64,000 nt of DNA from Minisyncoccia bacterium (GTDB taxonomy: Bacteria > Patescibacteriota > Minisyncoccia > Phycocordibacterales > UBA6065): contig JBIIJY010000001.1 in the NCBI GenBank assembly GCA_044233485.1, positions 16,701-80,700 of the forward strand, given 5' to 3'. The notes under the pieces are model-generated. The model did not search any database. It saw only the letters and a list, made by a program, of their open reading frames with translations, and had not been told where the DNA came from. The stretch's first letter is position 1. Each line of letters starts with the position of its first letter. This document shows, in pieces, positions 2,735 to 59,262 of this stretch. The translations under genes and the position numbers were made by a program.

Positions 2735-2802
2735 GTATATAGTAATACTGAGATTTTTTACTCTATTCTTAAGTCGCTACATAAGTTTTTTAGTGGTGAA
2801 AT

Positions 2803-2849
2803 ATCGGGATTCGGTCACGTATAAATTTCTGCTGAAATTTTATGCGACC
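2803..2849. repeat. 47-bp repeat R1, copy A. It contains a decayed tRNA-Glu 3'-end-like segment followed by GTCAC.
   Basis: atcgggattcggtcacgtataaatttctgctgaaattttaYgcgacc is identical apart from one Y to 3677-3723. It is preceded by gtgaaat rather than gtgaccct. Confidence 0.8.
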
Positions 2850-2930
2850 ACACTGCGCGGCTTTTTGAGCTGGTCAACCACAGATATGAAATCAGAGAGA
2901 AAAGCTGAATCTACAAACGATACTGGTATA

Positions 2931-3473
2931 TTAGTAAAACCAAGGAATAAGACCAACTCTCTTTTTATACTCAGAATATGTAGCCCCGAACTTCCTTTCA
3001 AGGAAATGATCTTCTTTTTTGATTACATGTAATATGAAAAATATAACAGGTGCCATCAAGAATACTAGCCAATAATTTAACTGAAGATAAATACCAACAC
3101 CAGTAAGTATTGCTCCAATGTAGTAAGGATGTCTGGTAAATTTGTAGGGTCCTCCTGTAAATAGAGTATCTCCAGAATCATCACCCATAAATCCCCAGTC
3201 CTTGTTTCTATTTAATCTAGTCCAGAACATGAGAATTAATCCGAATAAGGAAAACATTACACCTAAGTAATAAGTGGGATTAAAGATATTAGTTTCTACT
3301 ATTTCCAACAAAAGTAGTATTGGTACCAAAAAAGATATAAATATCTCAATAAATTTTCTGCCCCAATAGATAAACGAGGTGACCATTCTTCTGTTTCTCT
3401 TTCCTTGGACTAAAGTAAAGCTATTTCGGAAAACAATGAATGCGAAAAGTAATATTAATGTTACTATTTTCAT
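2931..3473 (-). CDS. Isoprenylcysteine carboxyl methyltransferase (ICMT/PEMT) family membrane methyltransferase.
   Basis: C-terminal motif TRHPYYIGAIL...EEDHFLERKFGATYSEYKKRV (RHPxY...EE...FG..Y..Y). Multi-TM, 180 aa. Confidence 0.8.
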   Translation of the reverse strand: MKIVTLILLFAFIVFRNSFTLVQGKRNRRMVTSFIYWGRKFIEIFISFLVPILLLLEIVETNIFNPTYYLGVMFSLFGLILMFWTRLNRNKDWGFMGDDSGDTLFTGGPYKFTRHPYYIGAILTGVGIYLQLNYWLVFLMAPVIFFILHVIKKEDHFLERKFGATYSEYKKRVGLIPWFY

Positions 3474-3521
3474 GGGTTACATTTTATCACTTTTAGACAT
3501 TTTTGATATAATTTACGGATC
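3474..3521 (-). promoter_or_regulatory. Conserved ~45-bp upstream element (promoter/5' leader module), copy 1, directly upstream of the ICMT gene.
   Basis: cattttatcacttttagacatttttgatataatttacggatcaa is near-identical to 6939-6985, which lies upstream of the CDPS operon. On the coding strand it reads ...TAAATTATATCAAAA.G.CTAAAAGTGATAAAATG, with a TGaTAAAAT-like -10. Confidence 0.5.
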
Positions 3522-3616
3522 AAGTGTGAGCCACAATAATTTGTTCGTCGTCACTCACAAATTTTCCAGCCCCGGACTCGACTGTTTTTCTTGCTAGAAA
3601 AACATGTCTCCGTCTT

Positions 3617-3687
3617 CACAAAATTTAAAAAGAGTGAAGCAGTTCACTCTTTTTAGAAACCAAATTTTGTGACCCTATCGGGATTCG
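3617..3687. repeat. Hairpin (terminator-like) plus an exact 21-nt copy of the tRNA-Glu 3' end (att-like remnant), copy 1.
   Basis: cacaaaatttaaaaagagtgaagcagttcactctttttagaaaccaaattttgtgaccc is followed by tatcgggattcg. 3667-3687 equals 11530-11550 of tRNA-Glu. The hairpin stem differs from the copy at 7138-7196 only by compensatory changes. Confidence 0.8.
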
Positions 3688-3744
3688 GTCACGTATAAAT
3701 TTCTGCTGAAATTTTACGCGACCCCGCCTCGCGCCGTCGCGCTC
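3677..3744. repeat. R1 copy B (3677-3723) fused to the 28-bp GC-rich motif R2 (3717-3744).
   Basis: R2 cgcgaccccgcctcgcgccgtcgcgctc is identical to 59214-59241, and a diverged relative lies at 60450-60476. It is followed by the long hairpin gtcacaatagtaaaaagccacgtgtagtggctttttattattgtgac and another ttgtgaccct at 3790-3799. Confidence 0.75.
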
Positions 3745-4014
3745 GGGCCGTCACAATAGTAAAAAGCCACGTGTAGTGGCTTTTTATTATTGTGACCCTA
3801 CTGTCCCTGGAGTGGAACTCCATAGAACAAGAGATTTTACGCTGGAAAAGTATTGTTTCTGTTTATGGTCATTTGATTATGTCTCCAAGTATGGCTTGAA
3901 AAGCTTACTTTTAAGTCTGTGATAGGAAGTTATTTCTACCAGTCTAGTTATAGGACTGTATTAGGTTAAACGGTTGGTGAAAAAATTAAATCTTCAGGCG
4001 ATACTGCTCCTACA

Positions 4015-4891
4015 TCAGGGCTGGCCTTTTTTTGGTTCACGTACTTTCATTTCCTTCGTGGCGAACATCTCGGCGAGTGTTTGATGGGTACTGGTGTCTC
4101 GCTTATCAACCTCGCCAGTTTTAGGGTTGTACATCTCTTTCTTTAACAAATCACTGATGATGTAAGCGGGTATGGATGAGGTAAGGGACGTTCCGTATGT
4201 GTATGTAAGTGCTATACCAGGAGGCACTCTAATGGCACCTCTTTCTATTAAACCTCCATAAAGTAATACTTCCACTTTACCTGTCACAGAATTAAAAATA
4301 GTAGAGCCACTTGAACCGCTTTGCACCATTGCGTCTATGAGTAAGCCGTGGGGATGTGAACAAGGAAAGGGTTGAACCGCACTCACAATACCTCGTTGCA
4401 ATACGGGGTTAATTTGATGTACCCAACCTGGGGCACGAAGTGTTCTGGTTCCCATTGGAAACCCTGCAATAAAAACCTCGTCGCCTTCGTTGAGATTGAA
4501 TGATGTTTCTAGTTAGAACAGGTAATCCTTTTGCTTTCACATAAATAAATCCAACATCAGGCACGTCTGTTCCGTAATGAGCACCCTCGACTGGTTCTTC
4601 TCTCGTTAATGTTCCAACTCCCTCGACTTCAAGAAATACTGATGCCATTCCTTTGCCTGGAAGGTTTTGTAGATACATTACCAGAATTGGCCATTCGTCG
4701 TCTGGTGCTCCCTTGCGTCTTGGTAGTTGCTTAATCACGTTTACAACGTGGTCATTGGTTACTATCAACCCGTCTTCTCGAACAATAAAGCCAGTCCCGA
4801 TAATATCGGGCATATCAGGATTTTGAGAAATTCTCCCGACTATGGCTACGATTGCTGGCTTTAGTTTTTGGTATTGAGAAGTGAATGACAT
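4015..4891 (-). pseudogene. Trypsin-like (S1, HtrA/DegP-like catalytic domain, no PDZ) serine protease interrupted by a frameshift. The two ORFs are 4409..4891 and 4015..4455.
   Basis: The upstream ORF carries the His motif LIVTNDHVV and ...KGLPVLT. The downstream frame, extended upstream past its ATG, reads SFNLNEGDEVFIAGFPMG and contains the Ser motif SGSSGSTIF. The frames meet near 4500-4515 (ctaactagaaac), where each frame hits a stop in the other. Confidence 0.65.
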
Positions 4892-4895
4892 AGTT

Positions 4896-5762
4896 TTATT
4901 TTGTATCGGGTTCTTTCTTGTGCCATGCCATAATCTTTTTCAGTTGCTCCTTCGTAAGCCCGCTATCGAAAGGCTTGAACAGCCTGTCAGCTTCTTGGAA
5001 ACCCTCTTGGTCTTTGAGGTACAAAAATGAGTTCTTAAGGTTCAGTAAAATTTTGATGAGTAAGTCTTTAACAATATGAAAATTATTTACGCAGTAGTGG
5101 TAACCAGCCTGCTCTTCAAAGTCGAAATCTAGCTTAAATACGTCAACGCTTTCAAGTAGTCCAGCATATCCGCTGTGGGTGTAACTAGACATAATCTTGT
5201 AACACTTCCCAAGCATTTCCTTGATAGGCTGTTCCTCGTTCTCGTAAAATTCTGCAAGCTCGGTATTCAAATGTTCGTGATAAAATTCTCTGGCATCTAC
5301 GTTGCCAATGATTTTGCCTTTGAACCACTTATCAAGAAGGGCCTTATTCTTATCGTCCCAGAACAGCATTGCCAAATCTAATGCTTCCGTACCAGAACGT
5401 GATAGCTCCATCGCTTCAAGGTTCCTACCGTGACGACAAACTAGAAGCGTAGTCTTCAAATTACCGAAAGCCCTCGCAAGGAGAAGATAAGCAGCCGCAG
5501 TCTTTGTTTGTTCGGTAATAGATGTGAGATAAGGGAAAATCCTTCGTATCAATTTCTCTACATCAGGAAGGATTGCCTCAATTTCATCGCATAGCTGGTT
5601 TATTTCCGCCACGCTCCTTGCCTTATCGACTGCGGGAGAATCTGGGTTCGCTTGTGCATATAGAAAGCCCTTCTTTTTATTTATATCTGCAACACGGTTT
5701 TTTACGTATTCTTCAGGAGTTTCGTCTTTTTCAAGCTCTTCAGGGAAAGGAGGTTTTGTCAT
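4896..5762 (-). CDS. Hypothetical protein (288 aa), last gene of the CDPS-SET operon.
   Basis: Its start overlaps the SET stop by 4 nt (ATGA). Acidic N-terminus, probably all-alpha. No motif identified by eye. Confidence 0.6.
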   Translation of the reverse strand: MTKPPFPEELEKDETPEEYVKNRVADINKKKGFLYAQANPDSPAVDKARSVAEINQLCDEIEAILPDVEKLIRRIFPYLTSITEQTKTAAAYLLLARAFGNLKTTLLVCRHGRNLEAMELSRSGTEALDLAMLFWDDKNKALLDKWFKGKIIGNVDAREFYHEHLNTELAEFYENEEQPIKEMLGKCYKIMSSYTHSGYAGLLESVDVFKLDFDFEEQAGYHYCVNNFHIVKDLLIKILLNLKNSFLYLKDQEGFQEADRLFKPFDSGLTKEQLKKIMAWHKKEPDTK

Positions 5763-6232
5763 AGGGATGTAGAAAGATAGTCAGAAATATAACCTTTGTA
5801 TTTTTCCTTTATTTCATTAGGAAGCTCTTTATAACAACCGAGCCTGCCTCTGCATATTGCGGAACCGCACTTACAGATACGCTCTTCTTCGGAAAGCTCG
5901 TCGCCATATTCATATCCAATCATTGCATAGTCTATGGCGAGTTCCTCGTCTTTCTTTATATTCCTCATTGCAACAAATAATGTGCGTTCCTTTACTCCCA
6001 GATTTGGGTCACACGAATGGCAAATAAACTGGCAGAGGTTTCCTTCTGGCATGGTAGGATCAATCTTCAAGCTCTCACTGATTGGTATGGTGTAAGCAGT
6101 TGCGTTTTCAACGATTGAACCAAAGGCTACGAACACAACCTCATCCTTTATAAAATCACGTTGGGCAAATAGGCTTTTCCCGTACTTACCTGTGTCCTTT
6201 GAGTAAACGTTGTCTTCGATTTTGTAAGTCAT
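5759..6232 (-). CDS. SET-domain methyltransferase.
   Basis: FICHSCDPN (NHSCxPN), ELAIDY (ELxFDY), and a post-SET Cys cluster CKCGSAICRGRLG. 157 aa. Confidence 0.85.
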   Translation of the reverse strand: MTYKIEDNVYSKDTGKYGKSLFAQRDFIKDEVVFVAFGSIVENATAYTIPISESLKIDPTMPEGNLCQFICHSCDPNLGVKERTLFVAMRNIKKDEELAIDYAMIGYEYGDELSEEERICKCGSAICRGRLGCYKELPNEIKEKYKGYISDYLSTSL

Positions 6233-6236
6233 AAAT

Positions 6237-6926
6237 TTAGCGAACCACGAGGAGAACTTTAGGTTTTGTGTCCATTACTTTGTCACGAACATCGAGGAAT
6301 AATTCTCCTTTCTGTATGCCTTCTACCAGTTCAGGTAGCTTGCCGTCGTAGGGATAGGCGTATGCATCGAATACCAATCCTTTGATTGGTGTACGTCCCA
6401 GGATTTCAGGAAATTCTGCTATGACATACGAACCCAGCTTTACCTTATCTTCGTAAGAGAAGACCCTATTTTCTTTGCTAGTAAAACTATCCACGAGTTC
6501 GATAATCGCACTTTTGAACTCACTATCTGTGTCGTACTTCTTGTTTAGGAAATCTAGCTTCTCTTGGAAGGCAGGGGTAAAAAGTTCGTCCCACTTTGCG
6601 AAGTGTAATTTCGAGAACTGGTCAGAAGTGAGCTTGGATTTTGCCAGAACTTTAACCCCTTCGAGTATTTCGTCTCCAAGTCGCAGGGCAGTCTCTTTCG
6701 CTTTTTCAGGAGACTTGCGGTTGCGCACTTCGATATTGATTGCGTGAATGCCATCGGCCACGTAAATGACCACGAACTCTTTTGTATGTTCAAGTGACCA
6801 CTCAACCAGACCCACAATGTTTTCAGTAGAAAACCACTTGTTTCCCAAGCTTATTCCAACCCCTATATTGTATTGCTTTGCGTAGAGGTCTTTTTCTGTT
6901 CCGCCTCGAACTTTGTATAACCGCAT
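6237..6926 (-). CDS. tRNA-dependent cyclodipeptide synthase (CDPS, AlbC/YvmC family).
   Basis: 229 aa. IGVGISLGNKWFSTEN matches the AlbC catalytic pocket IGISAGNSYFSQKN (GxS..N..F). VVIYVADGIHAINIE matches VVYVDTHIDEM. SYVIAEFPEIL matches NYVLAEAPLF (YxxxE). An aromatic-rich YAYPYD region matches the Y202 region. The SET gene follows 4 nt downstream. Confidence 0.75.
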   Translation of the reverse strand: MRLYKVRGGTEKDLYAKQYNIGVGISLGNKWFSTENIVGLVEWSLEHTKEFVVIYVADGIHAINIEVRNRKSPEKAKETALRLGDEILEGVKVLAKSKLTSDQFSKLHFAKWDELFTPAFQEKLDFLNKKYDTDSEFKSAIIELVDSFTSKENRVFSYEDKVKLGSYVIAEFPEILGRTPIKGLVFDAYAYPYDGKLPELVEGIQKGELFLDVRDKVMDTKPKVLLVVR

Positions 6927-6938
6927 AAAAGTAAAGTC

Positions 6939-6985
6939 ATTTTATCACTTTTAAGCCATTTTGATATAATTTACCTATCAATCAC
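6939..6985 (-). promoter_or_regulatory. Conserved ~45-bp upstream element, copy 2, directly upstream of the CDPS operon.
   Basis: cattttatcacttttaagccattttgatataatttacctatcaa is near-identical to 3477-3521. Confidence 0.5.
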
Positions 6986-7137
6986 CTCCCTGTGTAGTCA
7001 ATGCAGATCCCTCCCAGAGATTTGCATTTTGTGTCACGAGTTACTAAGTGTTCTCGATCGCTTTGCAATCTGCGAGCACTAAGCACTCGCGACCCCAGCT
7101 CGGCACTTTTTCAGCTGAAAAAGTATGCCTGCGCTTT

Positions 7138-7196
7138 CACAAAATTTAAAAAGACTGGAGCAGTCCAGTCTTTTTGGAAACCAAATTTTGTGACCC
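7138..7196. repeat. Hairpin plus a 9-nt tRNA-Glu 3'-end core (ttgtgaccc), copy 2. It forms the left junction of the GC-rich element.
   Basis: cacaaaatttaaaaagactggagcagtccagtctttttggaaaccaaattttgtgaccc. The stem agactgga/tccagtct corresponds to agagtgaa/ttcactct in copy 1, with base pairing preserved. Base composition changes abruptly after 7196. Confidence 0.8.
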
Positions 7197-7480
7197 ACAA
7201 CAGGACATACCTCGAACTTGGGACCGGATTCTCGACACCTTGGCAGCGTTGAACATGAAGGGCCTTCTGCCTGACCTGGCATCCGTTGTGGAACCAGAGC
7301 ATGCCTCTTTGAACGATGGCCTGCCGGATCACTTTGGCACCTAGCCCAAGCGGTTCGCCCCCCTTGCGGCGGATCAGGAAAGCATCAAAATCCGCCGACG
7401 AGATCGAGTGTCTGTTGGACGTGTGTCAGCAGCTCGGTCTCATCGATCACGGCGGTATCGGCGGCACGGGTAGAGCTGTG

Positions 7481-7717
7481 ATGGAACCGTTTGCCGTATT
7501 CGTTGATCAGTTCGATGCGGGACAGGATCGTCTGGGCTGCCGCCAGCGGATCAGCCGGCTGAGCGTCGCGAATCTTCCCGATGAAATCACCGAGCCCTGT
7601 TGTCCCGAGGACGCCCGACCGAATCCGGAACGGGTTCAGACCAAGGCGGCCCTGGAGGAACTGCTGGGCGACGACGAGGACGGTCTGGCCGCCACCTTCG
7701 AGGATTACCGCCTATGA
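7481..7717 (+). CDS. Hypothetical small acidic protein (start uncertain: 7316 or 7481).
   Basis: High GC at third codon positions in this frame from about 7480. The stop overlaps the next ORF's start (ATGA at 7714-7717). Confidence 0.4.
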   Translation: MEPFAVFVDQFDAGQDRLGCRQRISRLSVANLPDEITEPCCPEDARPNPERVQTKAALEELLGDDEDGLAATFEDYRL

Positions 7718-7986
7718 GCGCCCCGAAGTTCGGCCTGGGCCGGTTGGTGGCCACGCCCAATGCGTTGGCCCATGTCTCCCACGCGGAGATCCTGAAGGCC
7801 GTGTCCCGGCATCTGGCCGGCGATTGGGGCGACTGCGGGGCGGAGGATTGGGCAACCAATGACGCCGCCCTGGTGCAGGGCACCCGCCTGCTGTCGGTGT
7901 ATCACGCCGTGGACCGGACGAAGTTCTGGCTCATCACGGAATGGGACCGGTCGGTGACGACCGTGCTCCTGCCCGAAGACTACTGA
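7714..7986 (+). CDS. Hypothetical protein (~90 aa), translationally coupled to the upstream ORF.
   Basis: MSAPKFGLGRLVATPNALAHVSHAEILKAVSRHLAGDWGDCGAEDWATNDAALVQGTRLLSVYHAVDRTKFWLITEWDRSVTTVLLPEDY has protein-like composition. Confidence 0.5.
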   Translation: MSAPKFGLGRLVATPNALAHVSHAEILKAVSRHLAGDWGDCGAEDWATNDAALVQGTRLLSVYHAVDRTKFWLITEWDRSVTTVLLPEDY

Positions 7987-8124
7987 TTTCACGGCCTCCC
8001 ACTTCTGCGGAGGCCGCTTTTCTTCCCGCCGGCCCTTAAACCAAGGGGCCGTCCACGCTCCCGGCGGAGAGACTCACACCCAGAGCTACCTGCATCAACA
8101 GGCGGACGGCCCGAGAGAGACATC

Positions 8125-8631
8125 ATGGAAGAACCCGAGTTGTTCAAGGTCGCAGTGCGACCTCCCAAGAAGAAGAAGCCACCCCAGGAATACAAGGTGG
8201 TGGCGTTGCGGGACTGTCCGCTGCCGGAGTATCTGCTCAAATGCGAGTCCCCGGAGCACGCGGCCGACTACTGGCGGCGGTGCATCAGCACCCTGCCGAG
8301 TTACGATCCCGACAAGGAATCGTTCGTCGTGCTGTTGCTGACCACCCGCAAGCACGTCAAGGGCCACCAGGTGGTGACCACCGGCATCCTCGACCAGGTG
8401 CTGGTCCATGCCCGCGAAGTGTTCCGGCCCGCGATTGTGGCCGCCGCCCATGCGGTGGTCCTCATGCACAACCACCCCGGGGGAGACCCCTCGCCCAGCG
8501 AGGCGGACCTTCGTGTCACGCGTGACCTGATCCGCGCCGGCCAGCTCCTCAAGATCGAGGTGCTGGACCATGTCATCGTCACCCCGTTCCGGCACTGTTC
8601 ACTGCGGACGTTGGGTTACTTTGCAGGCTGA
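8125..8631 (+). CDS. radC: RadC-like JAB/MPN-domain protein.
   Basis: HNHPGGDPSPSEADLRVTRDLIRAGQLLKIEVLDHVIV matches the RadC/JAB motif HNHPSG..PS..D...T..L......I.LLDH.IV. Confidence 0.85.
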   Translation: MEEPELFKVAVRPPKKKKPPQEYKVVALRDCPLPEYLLKCESPEHAADYWRRCISTLPSYDPDKESFVVLLLTTRKHVKGHQVVTTGILDQVLVHAREVFRPAIVAAAHAVVLMHNHPGGDPSPSEADLRVTRDLIRAGQLLKIEVLDHVIVTPFRHCSLRTLGYFAG

Positions 8632-8635
8632 CCAA

Positions 8636-8672
8636 GCCCGCTCCGATGGAGCGGGCTTTTGTTGGCGATGAA
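8636..8672 (+). terminator. Rho-independent terminator after radC.
   Basis: aagcccgctcc-gatg-gagcgggctt followed by ttgttgg. Confidence 0.6.
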
Positions 8673-8831
8673 TTACGCTAAGAAGCTCCCGAGACTGCGA
8701 AACTGGTTCTAGGCGAACCTCGTGGCTTCGTTTCGGGCTACTGGCAAACCGCATGTCCTGTAAGGCGTGAAAGTTGAGAACCAGTCGCCCAGCCGACGCT
8801 GTTTCGGCTGGGCGGCACGCCTCGCGTTGCA

Positions 8832-9125
8832 TCATCCGCCTTTTCGGCGGACTTCTTTGACGACGACGGTCGCAATTTCCATAACAACGGCCCCGTGTTG
8901 TGCCAAAAATCGCACGGCAGGCCGAGCCCATATCGGCGCCAAGACGACCAGCGATCCCGTGACCACGTCGTGCCAACCGCGGTGCCAGCCGAACATCGCA
9001 AGCATGCCCAGGCCGGCGAAGCTGATCGGTATCCAATTGACGCTTTTCGAGATATGTGGTGCAGATTTCTTGCGCCCTTGCCGGCGGCGACGATTTGCGT
9101 TATCGTTATCTTGTTTACGCATAAC
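8832..9125 (-). CDS. Possible small membrane protein (~98 aa). Ambiguous against overlapping plus-strand ORFs.
   Basis: MRKQDNDNANRRRRQGRKKS... followed by a hydrophobic stretch WIPISFAGLGMLAMFGWHRGWHDVVTGSLVVLAPIW. The plus-strand ORFs 8767..9138 and 8895..9146 have poorer composition, but a plus-strand terminator at 9174 argues that something on the plus strand ends there. Confidence 0.3.
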   Translation of the reverse strand, partial: VMRKQDNDNANRRRRQGRKKSAPHISKSVNWIPISFAGLGMLAMFGWHRGWHDVVTGSLVVLAPIWARPAVRFLAQHGAVVMEIATVVVKEVRRKGG

Positions 9126-9173
9126 AGTGTTAGTGTGATTGTTTAATTGTGTAAACACCCGGGTTTTTCCGGG

Positions 9174-9211
9174 TAGGCCGCCTGCTGTAACAGGCGGCCT
9201 TTTTTGTTTGG
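9174..9211 (+). terminator. Rho-independent terminator (second of two tandem hairpins).
   Basis: aggccgcctg-ctgtaa-caggcggcct followed by tttttt. It is preceded by the hairpin acccgggtttttccgggt. Confidence 0.55.
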
Positions 9212-9300
9212 ACCGCACTTGCAGCCCACAGCCGACACTAGCAAGCGACTGCGCGAAGATGTTTGGGGTTTGGGTGGCGCATGGTGATTGGAAATGGTCG

Positions 9301-9624
9301 TTAAGCGGCCTGGCCAGCAATGGTCGCCAGAACCTGACGACGCTGGGTTTGCTGGTGGCCGGTCTGGGCAGCGAGTGCCTTGGCACGGGCCGCCACATCT
9401 CGGGCTACTTCGCCATAGAGACCGCTGAAGAGTTCGCTCGCCGAGCGCTGGTAGATGGCCTCGTAGGCGAGGGCCGCCCTAAGTCCGGGTTCACGGGCGA
9501 AGCGTTCATGCCGCGAGACCTTGGCCCCGCTCTGGGTGCCCAGCAGAAAGGCCACGTCCTCCTGGGAGAGTCCCAGGCGTTTGCGGTTCGAAAGCAGGTA
9601 GTTGGGTAGCAGGGTTGAAGACAT
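9301..9624 (-). CDS. XRE-family helix-turn-helix transcriptional regulator.
   Basis: LGLSQEDVAFLLGTQSGAKVSRHERF is a classic HTH_3 segment. It is transcribed divergently from the small ORF and the recombinase. Confidence 0.75.
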   Translation of the reverse strand: MSSTLLPNYLLSNRKRLGLSQEDVAFLLGTQSGAKVSRHERFAREPGLRAALAYEAIYQRSASELFSGLYGEVARDVAARAKALAAQTGHQQTQRRQVLATIAGQAA

Positions 9625-9872
9625 GGGGGTGGAACTCGCGGGGAGTCCGAGCCTTCACCCTACCGGATCGGTGAAACTATCGTAGGCGGGAACCTTTGCC
9701 GCTGACGGCAAGTGCGAAGGCCAACACCGGACAAATCAGTCCGGTGGAAGGATTAGGATTATACCATGTTATTACCCGTCCGTCAAAGATGCCCCCGAAA
9801 GGCGAAGGTGTCGTCACCGGCAGACATCCCCGTCTTCGGCCGCCAAGATTGAGGCGGTAGAGTGGGTCGCAC

Positions 9873-10106
9873 ATGAAGCCAAACCCCACTCCCACCCTGC
9901 GTGAGCTGTATCCCCACTTCACCGAGCACGAGCTGGCCGAGGCAGAGGATAACGTCGAACGCTATCTGGCGCTCATGCTGCGGATATTTGATCGCCTGGA
10001 GGCCGAGGCTGCCCCGTCGCCCGATCCATTGTCCCCTGACCCGGATGTGATACAATGCTCATTGCCGGATTCAGCCCCGCTTCCCCGGCCTCTCCCACAC
10101 CCATGA
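9873..10106 (+). CDS. Small protein (77 aa) translationally coupled to the serine recombinase. A possible directionality or accessory factor (speculative).
   Basis: Its stop TGA (10104-10106) overlaps the recombinase ATG (10103-10105). Confidence 0.45.
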   Translation: MKPNPTPTLRELYPHFTEHELAEAEDNVERYLALMLRIFDRLEAEAAPSPDPLSPDPDVIQCSLPDSAPLPRPLPHP

Positions 10107-11602
10107 ACGGATACATCGGCTACATCCGTGTCTCCACGGTGAAACAAGGAACCCAAGGAGTCTCGCTGCAGGAACAGCGCGAGGCGATTTTGCGTTACGC
10201 CGAACGCAATCGACTGCCGATTGGCATCTGGCTGGAGGAGATGGAAACCGCGGCCAAGCAGGGTCGTCCCGTGTTCAACCGCGCACTCAAACTGCTTCGT
10301 AGCCGAGGCGCCCGGGGAATCATCCTGCATAAGCTGGACCGGGGAGCGCGCAACCTCCGGGATTGGGCGGCTATCGGCGAGCTTTCTGATCAAGGCGTTG
10401 AGATTCACTTCGTTTCCGAAGGGCTGGATCTCCAGTCCAGGGGTGGCCGACTTTCGGCCGACATTCAGGCGGTCGTGGCCGCCGATTACATCCGCAATTT
10501 GCGTGAGGAGACCCGCAAGGGATTTTACGGACGTCTGAAGCAGGGCCTCTACCCGCTGCAGGCTCCGCTCGGCTATGTCGATCAGGGCCGGGGAAAGGCC
10601 AAGACGATTGACCCCGTGATGGGACCGATCGTCCGGCAGGCGTTCGAGCTTTATGCCAGCACCCACTTCAATCTGGAATCCTTGGGCACGGAATTGCATA
10701 GGCGGGGACTCCGCAACCGCCGCGGGGGACGGGTGACCCGCAATGGACTCTCCACGCTGCTCAACAATCCCTTCTATTTCGGCCTCATCCACCTTCAAAA
10801 GACGGGTGAGACCTTCGCGGGCGTGCATGAACCGCTCATTGGCAAGGTCCTCTTTGACCGCGTGCAGGGAGTTCTCACCGGCAAAACCAACACCCGCAGT
10901 CAGCGGCATCGGTTCCAGTATCGCCGGCTGTTTGCCTGTCAGTCCTGCCGTCATTCACTCGTGGGCGAGCGCCAGAAGGGGCACGTCTATTACCGTTGCC
11001 ACGGCAAATCCTGCCCGCCGTCTTCCGTCCGCGAGGAGGCCATCGGGATGCAGGTGGAAAACCTGCTCCGGAAAATCCGTTTCAATGAACAGGAACAGGC
11101 CTACTTCAAAGCCCGACTCCGCCTGATGAAAACGACGTGGGCCAATCGGCAGGAACAGGAGGCCAGACTTTTGAACATCAAGCTGGGCCAGCTCAGGGAT
11201 CGCCTCAACCGATTAACCGACGCCTACCTGGACCAGGCCCTCGATAAAACCATGTTTGAAGCCCGGAAACAGAGCCTGTTGCTGGAGCAGAGGGAGACCG
11301 AGGCGCAGCTAGCCAACCTGATCCGTCACCACGGCACTTCGCCGGATCGGCTTGAGAAATTCCTCGAACTGGCCGGCGACGCCTGGTTGAGCCACCAGAA
11401 GGCATCGCCCGAGGAACAGCGTGAACTGGTCAGCATCTTCACCTCGAACCGGCAGGTGCAGGGAAAAAAGGTCGAATTGGAGCCGTCGCTTCCGTTTAGG
11501 GAAATAGCGGAACGGTCGACTTCGGATGGTTGTGACCCTATCGGGATTCGAACCCGAGTTACAGGCTTGAAAAGCCCGTGTCCTGACCAGACTAGACGAT
11601 AG
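10103..11602 (+). CDS. Large serine recombinase (resolvase/invertase catalytic domain, recombinase domain, zinc ribbon, coiled coil).
   Basis: MNGYIGYIRVSTVKQ carries the catalytic Ser. Zn ribbon: CQSCRHSLVGERQKGHVYYRCHGKSC. Coiled-coil C-terminus. The ORF nominally reads through tRNA-Glu (11533-11606); the true stop and the role of the last ~25 codons are uncertain. Confidence 0.88.
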   Translation: MNGYIGYIRVSTVKQGTQGVSLQEQREAILRYAERNRLPIGIWLEEMETAAKQGRPVFNRALKLLRSRGARGIILHKLDRGARNLRDWAAIGELSDQGVEIHFVSEGLDLQSRGGRLSADIQAVVAADYIRNLREETRKGFYGRLKQGLYPLQAPLGYVDQGRGKAKTIDPVMGPIVRQAFELYASTHFNLESLGTELHRRGLRNRRGGRVTRNGLSTLLNNPFYFGLIHLQKTGETFAGVHEPLIGKVLFDRVQGVLTGKTNTRSQRHRFQYRRLFACQSCRHSLVGERQKGHVYYRCHGKSCPPSSVREEAIGMQVENLLRKIRFNEQEQAYFKARLRLMKTTWANRQEQEARLLNIKLGQLRDRLNRLTDAYLDQALDKTMFEARKQSLLLEQRETEAQLANLIRHHGTSPDRLEKFLELAGDAWLSHQKASPEEQRELVSIFTSNRQVQGKKVELEPSLPFREIAERSTSDGCDPIGIRTRVTGLKSPCPDQTRR

Positions 11603-11606
11603 GGCC
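11533..11606 (-). tRNA. tRNA-Glu (anticodon TTC).
   Basis: GGCCCTATCGTCTAGTCTGGTCAGGACACGGGCTTTTCAAGCCTGTAACTCGGGTTCGAATCCCGATAGGGTCA. It closely resembles E. coli tRNA-Glu. Anticodon loop TTTTCAA. No CCA is encoded. Confidence 0.85.
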
Positions 11607-11700
11607 AAGGAGTACCTTCAGCAATGACTGACTCGTACTGTCGATAATTTATAACATACTTTTGAAATGATTTCAAAAGTGCTACACTCACTTCTGCACT

Positions 11701-11787
11701 GGAAGCGTGGCTGAGTGGTTGAAAGCACCGCTCTCGAAAAGCGGCATAGGGGTAACCTTATCGGGAGTTCAAATCTCCCCGCTTCCG
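11701..11787 (+). tRNA. tRNA-Ser (anticodon CGA), type II with a long variable arm.
   Basis: GGAAGCGTGGCTGAGTGGTTGAAAGCACCGCTCTCGAAAAGCGG...GGGAGTTCAAATCTCCCCGCTTCCG. The acceptor, D, anticodon (CTCGAAA), variable and T arms all fold. Confidence 0.85.
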
Positions 11788-12045
11788 CAGGATAGGAAGT
11801 GTTGGGGACACTTCCGTGGAGATTTGAAAGGACTTTCCTGAAAGACGAGAAGTTTGTGGCTTCGAGTATTTCGGAAAGTCACCTGCCGATGTAATCGGAA
11901 AATCTCCCCGCTTCCGCAGGATAGGAAGTGTTGGGAACACTTCCGTGGAGATTTGAAAGGACTTTCCTGAAAGACGAGAAGTTTACTGCTTCGAGTATTT
12001 CGGAAAGTCACCTGCCGATGTAGTCGGAAAATCTCCCCGCTTCCG
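11771..12045. repeat. Tandem 129-bp direct repeats (2 full units plus 17 nt), each beginning with the tRNA-Ser 3' end.
   Basis: aaatctccccgcttccg occurs at 11771, 11900 and 12029. The units are near-identical and contain the internal palindrome ggaagtgttggggacacttcc. Confidence 0.85.
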
Positions 12046-12056
12046 CAGGAGATTAT

Positions 12057-15000
12057 TTACTCTAAAAATAGCCCCCAACTCTCGAGCAAGGCCTGTGTTT
12101 GGAATTGCAAGAATTCAAGGAGTGCCCGCTCAGTATTTTGACCGAACGTAGAAGTTTCTCTTCCTGGAGAGCCCGGACCAGTCTCGACGATCTCGAACCC
12201 GCTACGGTTAAGGAAGATTTGAAGATCTCGTACTCCGCTTGTGGCTGTGTTCAAGTTACCTACAGCCTCTTCACTTGCTGGGGTACTCACAGGCAATTGA
12301 ACACTCTGTACTACCGGAGCTTGAGGTGAAGCAGGAACCACAGGTATAGGCAGGGTCGTGGCGATCCGTGCCAGTCGACGTCCTGCATTTCCAGTACTTG
12401 AAGCCGGTTGAGGCGCTTGAGTGGCCACTTCTTCTACAGGCTGCGGACGCAACTGGATAGTCAGAACACGTAGTTCAACCCCACGCACACCGTCATCGGC
12501 TGGAAAAAATAATTTGTTTCCGAGAAGTTTTGCCTCGGACATCTCAGGACTTGAATCCGAACTCCCCGGATAGATATCGTCAACTAGGACAGTACCTTCA
12601 GTAGTACCGTCGCTTTTCCAGAGCTCGATACCATTCACGCCATCGGTCGCATTGAAATAGATTGTACCATCGATATCGACCAGACCACTCGGTTCACTAC
12701 TTCCTGTTTGATGTATATCCTTCACCATCACCGTTCCTTCTTCGGTGCCGTCGGATTTCCAGAGTTCGAATCCATTCACACCATCGATTGCCCTAAAATA
12801 CAAGTTATTATTGTAATTTAAAAAATATTGCGGCGAGGATGCATCTGAGTTTGCTGGAGCGATATTTTTCACCATGACCGTTCCCTCAGTGGTGCCGTCG
12901 GATTTCCAGAGTTCTAGATCATTCGCGAAACCATCAAACCCTGAAAAAAATAACGTGCCGTTGACAGTCAGCGCAAAATGCTCGAAACCAACATTCCCTG
13001 GCGGGTAGGTATCCTTCACAAGCACGGTGCCCAGAGTAGTACCGTCAGTCTTCCAGAGTTGAGTGAGCGAATTAAAGAAGTAGATGACATTCTCACCGAC
13101 TGTAAAGTTACTTAATTCTGCTGAATCAATATCTGTGACCACTATCGTCCCGTCCGTAGTGCCATCAGTTTTCCAGAGTTGTCTCCCATGCGTACCGTCA
13201 TTTGCAGTGAAATAAAGTGCATTTTTCCAAATGAAAAAACTAGTGGGGTCTGAGTAACCACCGTCTGGATTTATATCTTTTACCAGTACCGTTCCACCTT
13301 CAGTGCCATCAGTTTTCCAGAGTTCAGTTCCATATACATTGTCAGGGTCCGTAGCGCCAAAATAAACCACTCCATTGTAGGAGGCAATCTCTGTTGGAGT
13401 AGGGGCATCGATAATTTTTTGCGTTCCTTCACTTGTCCCATCGCTTTTCCAGAGTTCTCCATTACCATCAACATCAAAAGCAAAGAAATATAGTTGATTT
13501 CCGTTAACTGTGAGTACAGAGGGATCTGAACCAGAAAGCCCCGGGACAATATCTTTAACCATCACCGTCCCCTCGGTGGTGCCGTCACTTTTCCAGAGCT
13601 CGATACCATGAACCCCGTCATCGGCAATAAAATAGAAATTTTCTTTAAAGAGAATACTGCCCCCTGGATATGAACTGACAGTATTTGTATTCAAGTCTTC
13701 AATTAGCACCGTCCCCCCTTGCGTACCGTCACTTTTCCAGAGTTCATAGCCACGAACCCCATCATCGGCAGTAAAATACAACGCACCACCGCTCACAAGA
13801 AAACCTTGAGGGTTTGAATATCCAGGCTCAGCCCTATCTTCAGTATTTATATCTTTCACCATTACTGTTCCCACATCTGTCCCATCACTTTTCCAAAGTT
13901 CAAACCCATTAACACCATCGTCTGCTGAAAAATATAATGTACCAGCCGCACCAACCATGCGTCCGCCTGAAAGCCCATCGGTTTCGTCTCCACTGATATC
14001 CTTCACCATCACTGTTCCTTCTTCGGTACCATCACTTTTCCAGAGTTCAAACCCATTCACTCCGTCATTCCCTCCAAAGTAAAGCGTGCCGCCAATATCA
14101 ACTAGTGCAGATGGTAAATTCGTCTCTCCTTCAGTCGTATCAACATCCTTCACCATTACCGTTCCTTCTTCGGTACCATCACTTTTCCAGAGTTCATAAT
14201 CCTCATCAGTTGAAGCCGCCACAAAAAACAGGGTGCCACCTGAAACTACCAAACTATTGACCCCAGAACTACTATTTCCGGGATTTATATCTTTCACAAC
14301 CACCGTACCTAGTGTAGTACCGTCGGTCTTCATGAGCTCATACCCAGCGGCATTAGTACTCGCGCCGAAATATAAAACACCGTCGAATTCTGCAGCTGCG
14401 AAACCTTCAGATATCCCATCTCCACCTGTATAAAGGTCTTTTACGAGCACGGTGCCCAGAGTAGTACCGTCGGTCTTGTACAGCTCGTATCCAGTCCCGT
14501 CATTATAGCCTCTAAAATACAAATTTCCGCCAGCGTTAATGAATTGAGTAGTTACCGAGCCTGCTGGTCCCGGGCGAATATCCTTCACCATCACCGTTCC
14601 TTCTTCCGTGCCGTCACTTTTCCAGAGTTCAGATCCCGTAACGTCATTGTCCGATGCCGCGGAAAAGAATATCTCTCCATTTAGAATACCTACCTCACGA
14701 CCATCAAGCTGGAGAACCCCTTCTCCGGCTCCAGGATTGATATCCTTCACTATCACCGTCCCCTCCTCGGTACCGTCACTTTTCCAGAGTTCAGTACCGA
14801 GATTTGTCAAAGCAGAAAAAAAGAACACGTCCCCGACGACGTACAAATCACCGATCTGCGCATTCGCAACTCCAGCAGCAAACTGTTTTACAAGCATCGT
14901 ACCCTCAGAAGTTCCATCACTCTTCCAAATTTGATTATTATTCCGGACAAAATAAGTTGATCCGAGAAACTCGATTAATTCAGAAGAGATGCCGGCTGAG

Positions 15001-15146
15001 TCCGTATCGGTATTTATATCTTTCAAGAGCACTGAAGAGGCGCGCGCAGACTGCGCGGTTACCAGACTCGCAAAGATAACTAGCAAGAGTGCTGTCTTGA
15101 CGACGAAATTCACTTTTCTAGTATAGCAGAAAGTACCACTCGTCAA
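12057..15146 (-). CDS. Large secreted cell-surface protein: about 17 ELWxxDGT-type repeats (likely beta-propeller) plus a C-terminal peptidoglycan-binding (PG_binding_1-like) domain.
   Basis: Signal peptide. Repeated ELWKSDGTEEGTVMVKDI... units. The C-terminus, RDLQIFLNRSGF...GPGSPGRETSTFGQNTERALLEFLQFQ, resembles PG-binding domain 1. Confidence 0.85.
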   Translation of the reverse strand: MTSGTFCYTRKVNFVVKTALLLVIFASLVTAQSARASSVLLKDINTDTDSAGISSELIEFLGSTYFVRNNNQIWKSDGTSEGTMLVKQFAAGVANAQIGDLYVVGDVFFFSALTNLGTELWKSDGTEEGTVIVKDINPGAGEGVLQLDGREVGILNGEIFFSAASDNDVTGSELWKSDGTEEGTVMVKDIRPGPAGSVTTQFINAGGNLYFRGYNDGTGYELYKTDGTTLGTVLVKDLYTGGDGISEGFAAAEFDGVLYFGASTNAAGYELMKTDGTTLGTVVVKDINPGNSSSGVNSLVVSGGTLFFVAASTDEDYELWKSDGTEEGTVMVKDVDTTEGETNLPSALVDIGGTLYFGGNDGVNGFELWKSDGTEEGTVMVKDISGDETDGLSGGRMVGAAGTLYFSADDGVNGFELWKSDGTDVGTVMVKDINTEDRAEPGYSNPQGFLVSGGALYFTADDGVRGYELWKSDGTQGGTVLIEDLNTNTVSSYPGGSILFKENFYFIADDGVHGIELWKSDGTTEGTVMVKDIVPGLSGSDPSVLTVNGNQLYFFAFDVDGNGELWKSDGTSEGTQKIIDAPTPTEIASYNGVVYFGATDPDNVYGTELWKTDGTEGGTVLVKDINPDGGYSDPTSFFIWKNALYFTANDGTHGRQLWKTDGTTDGTIVVTDIDSAELSNFTVGENVIYFFNSLTQLWKTDGTTLGTVLVKDTYPPGNVGFEHFALTVNGTLFFSGFDGFANDLELWKSDGTTEGTVMVKNIAPANSDASSPQYFLNYNNNLYFRAIDGVNGFELWKSDGTEEGTVMVKDIHQTGSSEPSGLVDIDGTIYFNATDGVNGIELWKSDGTTEGTVLVDDIYPGSSDSSPEMSEAKLLGNKLFFPADDGVRGVELRVLTIQLRPQPVEEVATQAPQPASSTGNAGRRLARIATTLPIPVVPASPQAPVVQSVQLPVSTPASEEAVGNLNTATSGVRDLQIFLNRSGFEIVETGPGSPGRETSTFGQNTERALLEFLQFQTQALLESWGLFLE

Positions 15147-59213: not shown

Positions 59214-59262
59214 CCGCGACCCCGCCTCGCGCCGTCGCGCTCCGGCTTTCGAGTCCTGTAAT
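59214..59262. repeat. R2 GC-rich 28-bp motif (exact copy) followed by an inverted 13-nt tRNA-Ala T-arm fragment.
   Basis: cgcgaccccgcctcgcgccgtcgcgctc (59214-59241) equals 3717-3744. ttcgagtcctgta at 59249-59261 equals the tRNA-Ala T-arm in the opposite orientation. Confidence 0.7.

Follow-up and report, generated by a model that had tools for sequence, protein, structure and literature searches.

Results

The window analysed here, a 64,000-nucleotide stretch of a Patescibacteria/Parcubacteria chromosome whose LysRS has its best named matches in Parcubacteria, Patescibacteria and Minisyncoccia, carries a 4.34-kb integrative element (positions 7197-11538) inside the gene for tRNA-Glu(UUC). GC content climbs from 0.41-0.43 between 6000 and 7200 to 0.59-0.67 between 7200 and 8600 and drops again near 11500-11800. 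Over 7197-11531 it is 0.608, against 0.470 ± 0.008 (maximum 0.485) in 4.3-kb host windows across 12-64 kb, which gives z = 18. The tetranucleotide L1 distance between element and host is 0.528, or 3.6 times the host mean (host windows 0.147 ± 0.017, maximum 0.215). Both profiles bear out the abrupt rise at 7197 and fall at the tRNA that a preliminary description of this DNA had reported, although its view of the host as AT-rich was wrong, given a host GC of 47.0 ± 0.8%.

The borders are marked by a 9-nt direct repeat, TTGTGACCC, which occurs four times in the 64-kb window, always on the + strand, where 0.41 copies would be expected. The left copy (7188-7196, + strand) is the attL core. The right copy (11530-11538, + strand), the attR core, is the 3' end of tRNA-Glu(UUC) and takes in positions 68-72 of the acceptor stem, together with the discriminator base and three trailer nucleotides. 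The preliminary description had already noticed these 9 nt at both edges. Both recombination products are thus visible and share this block, which holds the crossover. The tRNA gene (11532-11606, − strand, anticodon TTC) forms the B' arm of attR and is intact after the insertion, its own sequence unaltered. In the B arm of attL, a 12-bp perfect hairpin with T/A runs (7148-7175) has the sequence of a bidirectional terminator, and before the insertion it would have stood directly downstream of tRNA-Glu. A second copy of hairpin and core, 92% identical, lies at 3615-3675, and the sequence to the left of 7188 is the terminal part of an older island rather than original chromosome. No exact match to the empty site was retrieved; an unoccupied tRNA-Glu homologue in locus L088 has an identical 3' half and carries TTGTGACCC adjoining a hairpin. 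The locus therefore combines a distal repeat of a tRNA 3' end, an intact proximal tRNA and a foreign interior, as in integrative elements at tRNA genes.

The right part of the element encodes a large serine recombinase (LSR; P0001) of 499 aa in its integrated state (10103-11602, + strand; the start at 10055 given earlier is corrected to 10103), of which residues 1-479 are authentic and the last 20 (IGIRTRVTGLKSPCPDQTRR) are encoded antisense to tRNA-Glu. Pfam identifies Resolvase (PF00239, E 8e-26) and Recombinase (PF07508, E 1e-11) domains, and Zn_ribbon_recom (PF13408) matches at E 1.5e-4, below Pfam's cut-off. Residues R9-V10-S11-T12 are invariant across 35 sequences, with Ser11 in the YIRVST motif, as are Cys279, Cys282 and Cys299; C304 is nearly so. 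In the predicted model, coiled-coil helices span residues 329-376 and 382-408, and the canonical LSR region stops near residue 457. The NCBIfam match is XisF/Ccr, PDB profile matches are to the TP901-1 (catalytic domain), SPbeta and A118 integrases, and Foldseek retrieves SPbeta, phiC31, Bxb1 and LI complexes (E 1e-16 to 1e-9). The protein thus starts with a resolvase-type catalytic domain carrying the nucleophilic serine, followed by a recombinase domain and a four-Cys zinc ribbon with an inserted coiled coil, in agreement with its initial assignment. Enzymes of this class recombine attP with attB at a 2-bp crossover, need no host factors and act unidirectionally unless a recombination directionality factor is present.

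The preliminary description had the recombinase reading into the tRNA, which is correct as far as it goes, but the gene also spans attP and its C-terminal piece has been displaced to the other end of the element. The reading into the tRNA arises because attP lies inside the recombinase ORF, in its 3' part, where the core TTGTGACCC spans codons Cys477-Asp478-Pro479. Joining 10103-11538 to the sequence from 7197 onwards yields a single in-frame ORF of 527 aa, whose final 51 aa align with the conserved tails of homologues. This PRTW...LPDL tail is present in 112 of the 120 best homologues; the eight that lack it include the product encoded in the window and four with tails antisense to a tRNA. 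The displaced 3' end, comprising the P' arm and the tail (CDPQQDIPRTWDRILDTLAALNMKGLLPDLASVVEPEHASLNDGLPDHFGT, then a stop codon), is intact at 7189-7344 (+ strand) and in frame with the core. Because the joined ends restore a conserved ORF, integration has swapped 48 aa for 20 aa encoded antisense to the tRNA. Only residues 480-527 are removed, and the catalytic, recombinase, zinc-ribbon and coiled-coil domains remain whole. In the model, the split point falls in a predicted low-confidence linker (475-477) directly before a helix (479-499), and no docking place for the tail was seen.

The cargo is as minimal as first described. orfA (133 aa, 7316-7717, + strand) begins before the tail ORF has ended, had no family matches and is ATGA-coupled to orfB (90 aa, 7714-7986, + strand), a widespread uncharacterised small protein (3394 matches, best 96% identity) that elsewhere lies behind a DnaG-type primase in regions resembling ICEs. 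A RadC-like JAB/JAMM protein of 168 aa comes next (8125-8631, + strand; PF04002, E 3e-34; phrog_10276), and a GC-rich hairpin with a T run (9175-9210, + strand) is the likely terminator of the tail-orfA-orfB-RadC unit. An ORF previously called at 8832-9398 is probably spurious, being unconserved and containing this strong + strand terminator (9175-9200). Divergent from these genes is an XRE-type HTH regulator (107 aa, 9301-9624, − strand; part of the family's conserved core, 56 loci), preceded on its strand by a promoter-like site at 9786-9758 that matches at 11 of 12 positions. The conserved small ORF orf77 (9873-10106, + strand) overlaps the recombinase ATG with its stop (ATGA), recurs at 50 loci and forms one protein with the recombinase in P0109; it is a candidate accessory or directionality factor. 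We rejected classification as an ICE or mobilisable element, since 7197-11531 holds no relaxase, oriT, coupling protein or type IV secretion genes and its sole ICE-like part is the orfB-RadC module, and as a prophage, since there are no virion, lysis or phage replication genes and the recombinase family is nearly absent from phages.

Seven further integrated copies have a recombinase body that abuts an antisense tRNA 3' end (Glu twice, Arg, Gln, Ala, Lys and Tyr, hence six tRNA species); five are labelled Patescibacteria and two lie in low-GC hosts without a phylum label. One of them, L019, is high in GC and has its displaced tail at the far end, 7.8 kb off, with an 8-nt repeat. The closest relatives of the recombinase (61-78% identity) are intact genes of Verrucomicrobiota, and in the tree it nests within their clade; no near-identical donor recombinase was found in the databases, the best match being 78% identical. 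In the cargo, 7595-8665 (orfB-RadC) is 90.2% identical in nucleotides to an ICE-like region of a 682-kb, 63%-GC contig. The searches with recombinase and orfB that had been suggested thus lead to a Verrucomicrobiota clade and to this contig, and together with the LysRS of the host they uphold the earlier proposal that a CPR genome has here acquired foreign DNA of high GC. Nothing in them points to a host or partner of this bacterium as the donor, which that description had suggested. In other phyla, the majority of the family are intact chromosomal genes with no tRNA nearby, which a simple attP × tRNA model fails to explain. In Verrucomicrobiota there are arrays in which cassettes of 0.2-2.3 kb lie downstream of the recombinase gene in the same orientation and terminate in a copy of the recombination site; their cargo includes defence candidates, and every cassette has a spare C-terminal recombinase coding segment.

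The reconstructed attP contains two frozen CCTCGAAC motifs at a spacing of exactly 110 nt. The ACCTCGAAC motif of the P' arm (7209-7217, + strand; codons ..A CCT CGA AC.) is a candidate binding motif for the zinc-ribbon domain, and its synonymous sites are frozen: all 25 sequences compared use CCT CGA for Pro-Arg, whereas later third positions are 32-68% conserved. The upstream ACCTCGAAC motif (11441-11449, + strand; codons Thr-Ser-Asn) is also conserved and lies 80 nt from the core. From TCGAA to an invariant GT, the distance is 22 nt in P' and 16 nt in all eight target tRNAs. The P' arm thus appears to imitate the 3' half of a tRNA, with TCGAAC standing for the T-loop of real tRNAs, and its position 6 bp further from the core than in the tRNA resembles the zinc-ribbon-domain motif offset of other LSRs. 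In this element the two arms seem to mirror each other (GGTCGA-N11-TGTG-ACC-CACA-N12-TCGAAC), but family-wide DNA conservation is confined to P'; with no mirror of P' visible in the P arm across the family, attP does not look like a textbook pseudo-palindrome, which would span about 50 bp and have similar P and P' arms.

Discussion

Our results support a model in which a large serine recombinase inserted the element 7197-11538 at the extreme 3' end of tRNA-Glu(UUC) through an attP inside its own gene, which was split in the process; we put the probability of this reading at about 0.85. The repeat, the tRNA and the in-frame reconstruction all favor the LSR-driven integration that had been proposed. 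In the circular form, the gene encodes a 527-aa enzyme ending in the conserved helical tail. Recombination of attP with attB leaves the body (residues 1-479) at the right end, running into the tRNA in antisense to give the 499-aa product, and puts the tail-coding piece at the left end, at a distance of 4.3 kb. It would also separate orfA-orfB-RadC from the recombinase transcription unit and place the 3' end of the recombinase gene antisense to the tRNA gene. Because the split costs only the family-specific C-terminal extension and leaves the domains intact, the integrated 499-aa form is probably still a DNA-binding recombinase, with a directionality, stability or expression that probably depends on the integration state. 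Recognition of the universal T-loop would open a wide choice of tRNAs across many phyla to the family, with no need of host factors.

A dead-end ('suicidal') insertion, in which the truncated recombinase is inactive and the trapped element either decays or is rescued by a related full-length enzyme, is unlikely in our view but carries real weight. A conserved tail is indeed missing from the expressed protein, SSV-type integrases provide a precedent (PMC8371274), and four CPR loci with host-like GC (L020, L051, L073 and L074) have no tail or attL within 7 kb, which fits loss of the left end. However, the residues lost lie beyond the canonical LSR domains, all eight integrated copies, those with host-like GC included, keep an uninterrupted body of ~470-480 aa, and in this element both attL, with its intact tail ORF, and attR are undamaged. 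We are considerably more doubtful of an origin within the CPR mobilome itself, with the high GC as a property of the element lineage and no recent import across phyla. The family does occur in five other Patescibacteria classes, always with a tRNA target, and some copies are near host GC, but the Verrucomicrobiota sequences among which this recombinase nests are 72-74% identical to it while labelled CPR copies share only 49-59%, the CPR copies are polyphyletic in the tree, the cargo has its 90% nucleotide match in an ICE-like part of a contig with 63% GC, and a GC of 61% betrays no amelioration. Cross-phylum import is thus well supported, and we infer from these sequence comparisons that it was recent and drew on a high-GC gene pool, bringing together a Verrucomicrobiota-type recombinase module and cargo of the ICE leading-region type.

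It is very improbable that the element is the remnant of a temperate phage, with a serine integrase and a few genes left after deletion. Many classic integrases of phages are LSRs and RadC has a match in one PHROG family, but structural, lysis and replication genes are absent, the ends are exact att sites with no deletion scars, and the recombinase family numbers 300 loci in genome species representatives against 1 among 2.9 million viral contigs (IMG/VR), with at most 27% identity to INPHARED phage genomes. We give even less credence to an assembly chimera or contamination: a GC-rich foreign fragment joined into a CPR contig would explain the abrupt change in composition, but not why each junction coincides precisely with a copy of the 9-nt repeat formed by the tRNA 3' end, why end-to-end joining restores a conserved ORF in frame, or why independent assemblies from other projects have identical geometry, and host genes flank the insert on either side within its 195,912-bp contig.

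Beyond the self-insertion of this element, we tentatively suggest, as a rather speculative extension, that the family is a large one of host-factor-independent serine recombinases with a tRNA-mimicking attP in the 3' end of their own gene, a tail that acts as a switch governed by integration state, and a role in Verrucomicrobiota defence-cassette arrays. If so, the enzyme would find tRNA genes through the universal T-loop and insert across phyla, CPR included. The full-length enzyme of the circle would integrate, and the tail-swapped chromosomal enzyme would differ, for example in being excision-competent or silenced. The same site chemistry would build integron-like anti-phage arrays in Verrucomicrobiota, where the spare tail brought by each cassette would be fused to the recombinase when the preceding cassette leaves.

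Several known systems share parts of this arrangement. Integrons resemble only the Verrucomicrobiota relatives, in having a recombinase followed by same-orientation cassettes with site copies, but they use a tyrosine recombinase and a folded single-stranded attC, whereas the Verrucomicrobiota cassettes carry the spare C-terminal segment. Islander-type tRNA islands (PMC4383910) are alike in inserting at tRNA 3' ends, in an identity block that keeps the tRNA intact and in tandem accumulation, which the window also displays (units at the same tRNA, 2802-7196); they usually have tyrosine integrases and longer identity blocks, and the block is 21 nt in the neighbouring units but 9 nt in the LSR element. 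The phage LSRs (LI/A118, phiC31, Bxb1, SPbeta and TP901-1) share the domain order of catalytic domain, recombinase domain, zinc ribbon and coiled coil, and an outer motif nearer the crossover in attB than in attP, by 5 bp for LI integrase (PMC3783163) and 6 bp here. Identity to them is only 13-27%, however, and this family has an extra C-terminal extension, is not phage-borne, and has an intragenic, tRNA-like attP directed at tRNA 3' ends rather than protein-coding genes, with no evident mirror of P' in the P arm and a second frozen motif 110 nt upstream.

In mycobacteriophages BPs and Brujita (PMC3694055), attP also lies in a coding sequence, and integration alters the C-terminus of a protein and hence its behaviour; in those phages a tyrosine integrase splits the repressor gene, and the C-terminus that is lost is a degradation tag, whereas here the recombinase itself is changed. 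Closest in layout are the 'suicidal' integrases of SSV1, pTN3 and pT26-2, which likewise have an intragenic attP, a tRNA target and a gene split to opposite ends (PMC8371274, PMC7253208). Those are archaeal tyrosine recombinases (Phage_integr_3) in which the N-terminal part is parted from the catalytic C-terminal part, leaving two pseudogenes, whereas in this bacterial large serine recombinase the break after residue 479 of 527 appears from the sequence to leave the catalytic part whole and exchanges only a 48-aa extension. A 2021 review considers such self-splitting tyrosine recombinases exclusive to archaea, and the literature that we found describes the self-splitting arrangement for archaeal tyrosine integrases only.

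Boundaries and composition of the element

The boundaries given in the preliminary description for the GC-rich insertion at the tRNA-Glu gene are exact. Two plus-strand copies of the core TTGTGACCC lie at 7188–7196 (left junction, attL) and 11530–11538 (right junction, attR), and ARAGORN and Rfam agree on a tRNA-Glu(UUC) gene at 11532–11606 on the minus strand, the sequence of which is unaltered by the insertion. The core occurs four times in the window, always on the plus strand, against 0.41 copies expected. The shift in composition, previously claimed by eye, is confirmed by two measures. In a sliding profile, GC content is 0.41–0.43 until 7200, 0.59–0.67 from 7200, 0.56–0.66 up to ~11400 and back at 0.45–0.51 beyond 11600; the value for 7197–11531 is 0.608, compared with 0.470 ± 0.008 (maximum 0.485) for windows of the same length across 12–64 kb (z = 18). 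Likewise, the element lies at a tetranucleotide distance of 0.528 from the host, against 0.147 ± 0.017 (maximum 0.215) for host windows. The host itself, however, is not AT-rich as had been supposed: its GC content between 12 and 64 kb is 46–49%, and the lower values at the start of the window (0.36–0.42 over 7 kb) are due to that stretch being island DNA as well.

The reconstructed attP junction (11538 joined to 7197) reads GGATGGTTGTGACCCACAACAGG, and the reconstructed attB junction (7187 joined to 11539) reads CCAAATTTTGTGACCCTATCGGG. An exact 30-nt query for the empty site had no match in metagenome contigs. When the query was limited to the tRNA part (31 nt), one unoccupied tRNA-Glu gene was recovered, on a metagenome contig of a different low-GC organism, which shares with that of the window an identical 3' half, the G2-U71 pair and a copy of TTGTGACCC adjoining a hairpin.

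Host genes in the window include dnaE, lysS, proS, smc, mrdA, ychF and the gene for RNase R (contig of 195,912 bp, JGI sample 3300059473). The named best matches of the lysyl-tRNA synthetase all come from Parcubacteria, the Patescibacteria group, Nomurabacteria or Minisyncoccia, and the host is thus a CPR bacterium (Patescibacteria). The element carries orfA (7316–7717) and orfB (7714–7986), which share an ATGA overlap, a RadC/JAB gene (8125–8631), an XRE regulator on the minus strand (9301–9624) and orf77 (9873–10106), whose stop codon overlaps the recombinase ATG at 10103. No match to orfA, orfB or orf77 was found in Pfam, PHROGs, NCBIfam or PADLOC. A further candidate gene, orf188 (8832–9398), was dropped, being not conserved in related loci and containing a strong plus-strand terminator at 9175–9200.

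The tRNA-Glu gene is a hot spot, and it had been occupied before the recombinase element entered it. Two tandem units without an integrase lie at the same gene, at 2802–3675 (cargo: a PEMT-like methyltransferase) and 3676–7196 (Trypsin_2, a 288-aa protein, and a SET-domain protein adjoining a cyclodipeptide synthase, PF16715, E 4e-9, in island DNA at 5759–6926). Both units start with the tRNA fragment TATCGGGATTCG and a common 46-nt sequence, and both end with a promoter-like box, a terminator hairpin and TTGTGACCC; the 21 nt at 3667–3687 are identical to 11530–11550. At 3763–3800, a hairpin followed by TTGTGACCCTA resembles another att scar of the tRNA-Glu 3' end. The 28-nt GC-rich sequence CGCGACCCCGCCTCGCGCCGTCGCGCTC is identical at 3717–3744, near the start of the second unit, and at 59215–59242, ~70 nt downstream of a tRNA-Ala 3' end. 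The last 22 nt of tRNA-Ser(CGA), AAATCTCCCCGCTTCCGCAGGA, occur in three copies at 11771–12050 with a period of 129 nt; the two 129-nt units downstream of this gene, which are 96% alike, are possibly miniature att-bounded units or scars. Directly past these repeats, 12057–15146 encodes a 1029-aa protein of many ELWKSDGT.EGT repeats.

The attP site lies inside the recombinase gene

The protein encoded next to the tRNA is a genuine large serine recombinase. Pfam assigns it Resolvase, Recombinase and Zn_ribbon_recom domains, and its family profile matches the TP901-1, SPbeta and A118/LI integrases in the PDB; the closest NCBIfam models, XisF and SCCmec Ccr, are all far under cut-off. An AlphaFold model (mean pLDDT 76.5) contains the catalytic, recombinase and zinc-ribbon domains and a long coiled coil (helices 329–376 and 382–408), followed by a family-specific extension that ends in a low-confidence linker (475–477) and a helix (479–499). 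The best Foldseek matches are the SPbeta, phiC31, Bxb1 and LI integrase–DNA complexes. Identity to any studied large serine recombinase is only 13–27%.

The 120 best database homologues, all from metagenomes or metagenome-assembled genomes, have 65–78% identity when the window's own product is excluded, and 112 of them carry a conserved tail, (Q)DIPRTWD(R/K)IL..L..LN..G.LPDL, after ...C-x-P. The window's protein ends differently. The coding piece for the tail is displaced to 7189–7344, where it begins at the TGT of the left TTGTGACCC and is intact to its stop codon. Because 10103–11538 and the sequence from 7197 onwards join into a single 527-aa open reading frame, the gene runs across the junction in the circular form. 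The 9-nt block encodes Cys477-Asp478-Pro479, and the crossover lies within it; in the integrated state, residues 480–527 are exchanged for 20 residues (IGIRTRVTGLKSPCPDQTRR) read antisense to tRNA-Glu. We thus observe both recombination products, attL and attR, an attP inside the gene and a split located after all canonical domains of such enzymes. That the GC-rich segment is instead a chimera of the assembly is extremely improbable, since the two halves of a conserved open reading frame meet in frame at a tRNA-derived repeat, a placement that no assembler artefact would give.

The intact gene also contains a paired motif. In 40 entries, which represent 38 distinct loci in several phyla, two copies of the 8-mer CCTCGAAC lie in direct orientation at a spacing of exactly 110 nt, and the pair is kept across phyla at 48–74% protein identity. 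Here the upstream copy (11441–11449) occupies Thr-Ser-Asn codons 80 nt from the core and the downstream copy (7209–7217) lies in P', the attP arm on the tail side, so that the crossover falls between them; the motif is written as ACCTCGAAC at both sites. A standard attP is ~50 bp, and the upstream copy at 80 nt therefore lies outside it.

Related loci in Patescibacteria and other phyla

Relatives were sought in one genome per species; of the 300 loci so found, the 80 best were retrieved. Among these 80, the recombinase body (residues 1–479 in the window's copy) ends at an antisense tRNA 3' end in all five loci labelled as Patescibacteria: at tRNA-Arg in the Patescibacteria group (L019), tRNA-Glu in Zambryskiibacteriota (L020, adjoining the same tRNA-Ser as in the window), tRNA-Gln in Saccharibacteria (L051), tRNA-Ala in Liptonbacteria (L073) and tRNA-Lys in Moraniibacteria (L074). 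Low-GC hosts without a label hold split copies at tRNA-Glu (L083) and tRNA-Tyr (L084). Of the best 80 of the 300 loci, the remaining 75 are labelled as other phyla; in none of them does a tRNA lie at the gene end, and at least 37 have an intact attP signature. The tRNA-Arg locus (637–8417 of L019, a 157-kb Patescibacteria contig) is a second complete split-recombinase element, 7.8 kb long, in which an 8-nt repeat (GGTGCCCC) lies together with the displaced tail 7.8 kb away from the tRNA. Its GC content is 0.54–0.64, compared with ~0.45–0.5 for its host, and as cargo it carries genes for an RHS toxin (Tox-REase-7 domain) as well as for one HEAT-repeat and one cohesin/dockerin protein.

In the Verrucomicrobiota-type clade, six loci (L002, L003, L004/L085, L012 and L014, labelled Verrucomicrobiota, and L081, on a contig without label) have an intact gene followed by one or two extra tails in the same orientation, 0.2–2.3 kb apart. 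In these orphan tails, similarity to the gene starts exactly at the core, and the DNA before the core is unrelated, with a short hairpin at its end, resembling the downstream flank of a tRNA. The segments between tails encode a LexA-type or XRE regulator together with one of PDC-S54 (E 3e-80), PD-T7-5 (E 4e-19) or an NYN nuclease. Random deletion, which would make the orphan tails remnants of lost genes, is rejected because the junction falls exactly at the core in every case and because an orf77-like gene before the orphan tail in L003 has its own stop codon and terminator. The arrays look as would be expected if circular cassettes, each with its own site and tail, inserted into the site inside the recombinase gene. 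Such insertion would require attP to pair with an attL-like site, a reaction that studied serine integrases are not known to carry out. No tRNA was found within 7–10 kb of the orphan-tail arrays. Detached tails are common in public data, since a 51-aa tail query returned 23 cluster representatives, 22 of which are short open reading frames of 50–204 aa.

Two other proposals were set aside. Several homologues on 4–5 kb contigs were considered as assembled circles; of these, L081 and L082 lack terminal overlap and are plain fragments. A general rule that intact genes lead cassette arrays ending at a tRNA is not supported by Acidobacteriota or Verrucomicrobiota loci. In three Acidobacteriota loci (L037, L042 and L058), an antisense tRNA-Pro lies 2.8–6.5 kb downstream of the intact recombinase gene, with acceptor sequences that differ from the attP cores, and the 10-kb flanks of Verrucomicrobiota loci contain ordinary genes and no tRNA. 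A common flank sequence precedes the tRNA-Pro in L037 and L058.

Source of the element

The tRNA-inserted copies are dispersed over a neighbour-joining tree. The window's recombinase falls inside a Verrucomicrobiota clade beside L001–L003 (72–74% identity), L084 pairs with the copy on a Verrucomicrobiae chromosome, and L019 pairs with another Verrucomicrobiota sequence. Several of the Verrucomicrobiota copies are safely assigned, since their contigs are 323 kb, 705 kb and 6 Mb long. The cargo agrees with this picture: orfB has matches at 96% identity, and 7595–8665 (the end of orfA, orfB and RadC) has 90.2% nucleotide identity to 9882–10953 of L089, a 682-kb contig of 63% GC (JGI 3300042197), where the matching stretch comes after a TrwB coupling protein, a Replic_Relax protein and a DnaG-type primase. 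This context is consistent with a leading-region module of an integrative and conjugative element (ICE) or plasmid, and, judged from these matches, the element is a mosaic that combines a recombinase module of Verrucomicrobiota type with a module of ICE type. None of these matches identifies the donor as a physical partner of the CPR cell. Its arrival is too recent for its composition to have drifted towards that of the host.

The recombinase family is not phage-borne: it was found at only one locus among 2.9 million viral contigs, and no match in phage genomes exceeded 27% identity. The one plasmid homologue found, which is also the sole homologue found from a cultured organism, is a 515-aa 'recombinase family protein' (WP_259956251.1; 46.5% identity) on plasmid NZ_CP081110.1 of Sulfitobacter mediterraneus M342 (97127–98674), neighboured by repABC and a type IV secretion coupling protein. 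Its C-terminus has neither the PRTW tail nor the paired CCTCGAAC motifs.

Proposed mechanism

For the Pro and Arg of PRTW, 25 of 25 intact genes (50–74% protein identity) use the codons CCT CGA, although the search pattern also allowed CCC and any CGN, and the third positions of the following 25 codons are only 32–68% conserved; the P' arm is probably under constraint as DNA as well as protein. The motif also contains TCGAAC, the antisense of the tRNA T-loop, and the distance from its start to the invariant GT of the core is 22 nt in P' versus 16 nt in all eight target tRNAs. In the LI integrase, the motif of the zinc-ribbon domain is shifted towards the centre by 5 bp in attB relative to attP, an offset on which site discrimination is based (PMC3783163). 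A recombinase reading the universal T-loop at the attB spacing could accept many tRNAs. The C-x-P codons differ among members in the manner of acceptor-stem sequences, TGGTGCCCC and TTGTGGCCC being two examples.

The circular form has orf77, the recombinase, the tail, orfA, orfB and RadC on one strand, and the tail open reading frame overlaps orfA. Integration would sever orfA, orfB and RadC from the recombinase unit and set the 3' end of the recombinase gene opposite the tRNA gene. The helical tail is probably selected as protein, since orphan tails elsewhere stay intact conserved open reading frames, and its loss probably alters the behaviour of the recombinase. That this loss simply inactivates the enzyme, as in the archaeal SSV-type integrases that split their own gene, seems to us rather unlikely: all eight integrated bodies are uninterrupted, which counts against simple decay. 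Tail loss may instead change the directionality of the enzyme.

Relation to known systems

Horizontal acquisition routes of CPR bacteria are poorly documented, and the element represents a precisely bounded transfer of DNA across phyla into a small CPR genome; eight independent insertions into tRNA genes make this case of gene flow testable. Large serine integrases are also common engineering tools, and an enzyme that reads a universal tRNA feature and rewrites its own C-terminus could reveal how site choice and directionality are set.

[quoted passage not shown] The type of enzyme and the type of target are each ordinary; their combined arrangement appears not to have been described for bacteria or for serine recombinases. 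An arrangement thought to be archaeal thus extends to a bacterial serine recombinase family with at least 300 loci among species representatives. In the integration-dependent immunity of mycobacteriophages, attP also lies inside a gene (PMC3694055), but that gene encodes the repressor and not the recombinase. The nearest concept is the suicidal SSV-type integrase; those are tyrosine enzymes that are destroyed by the split, whereas here the enzyme is a bacterial serine recombinase and the split is milder and may be regulatory, not suicidal.
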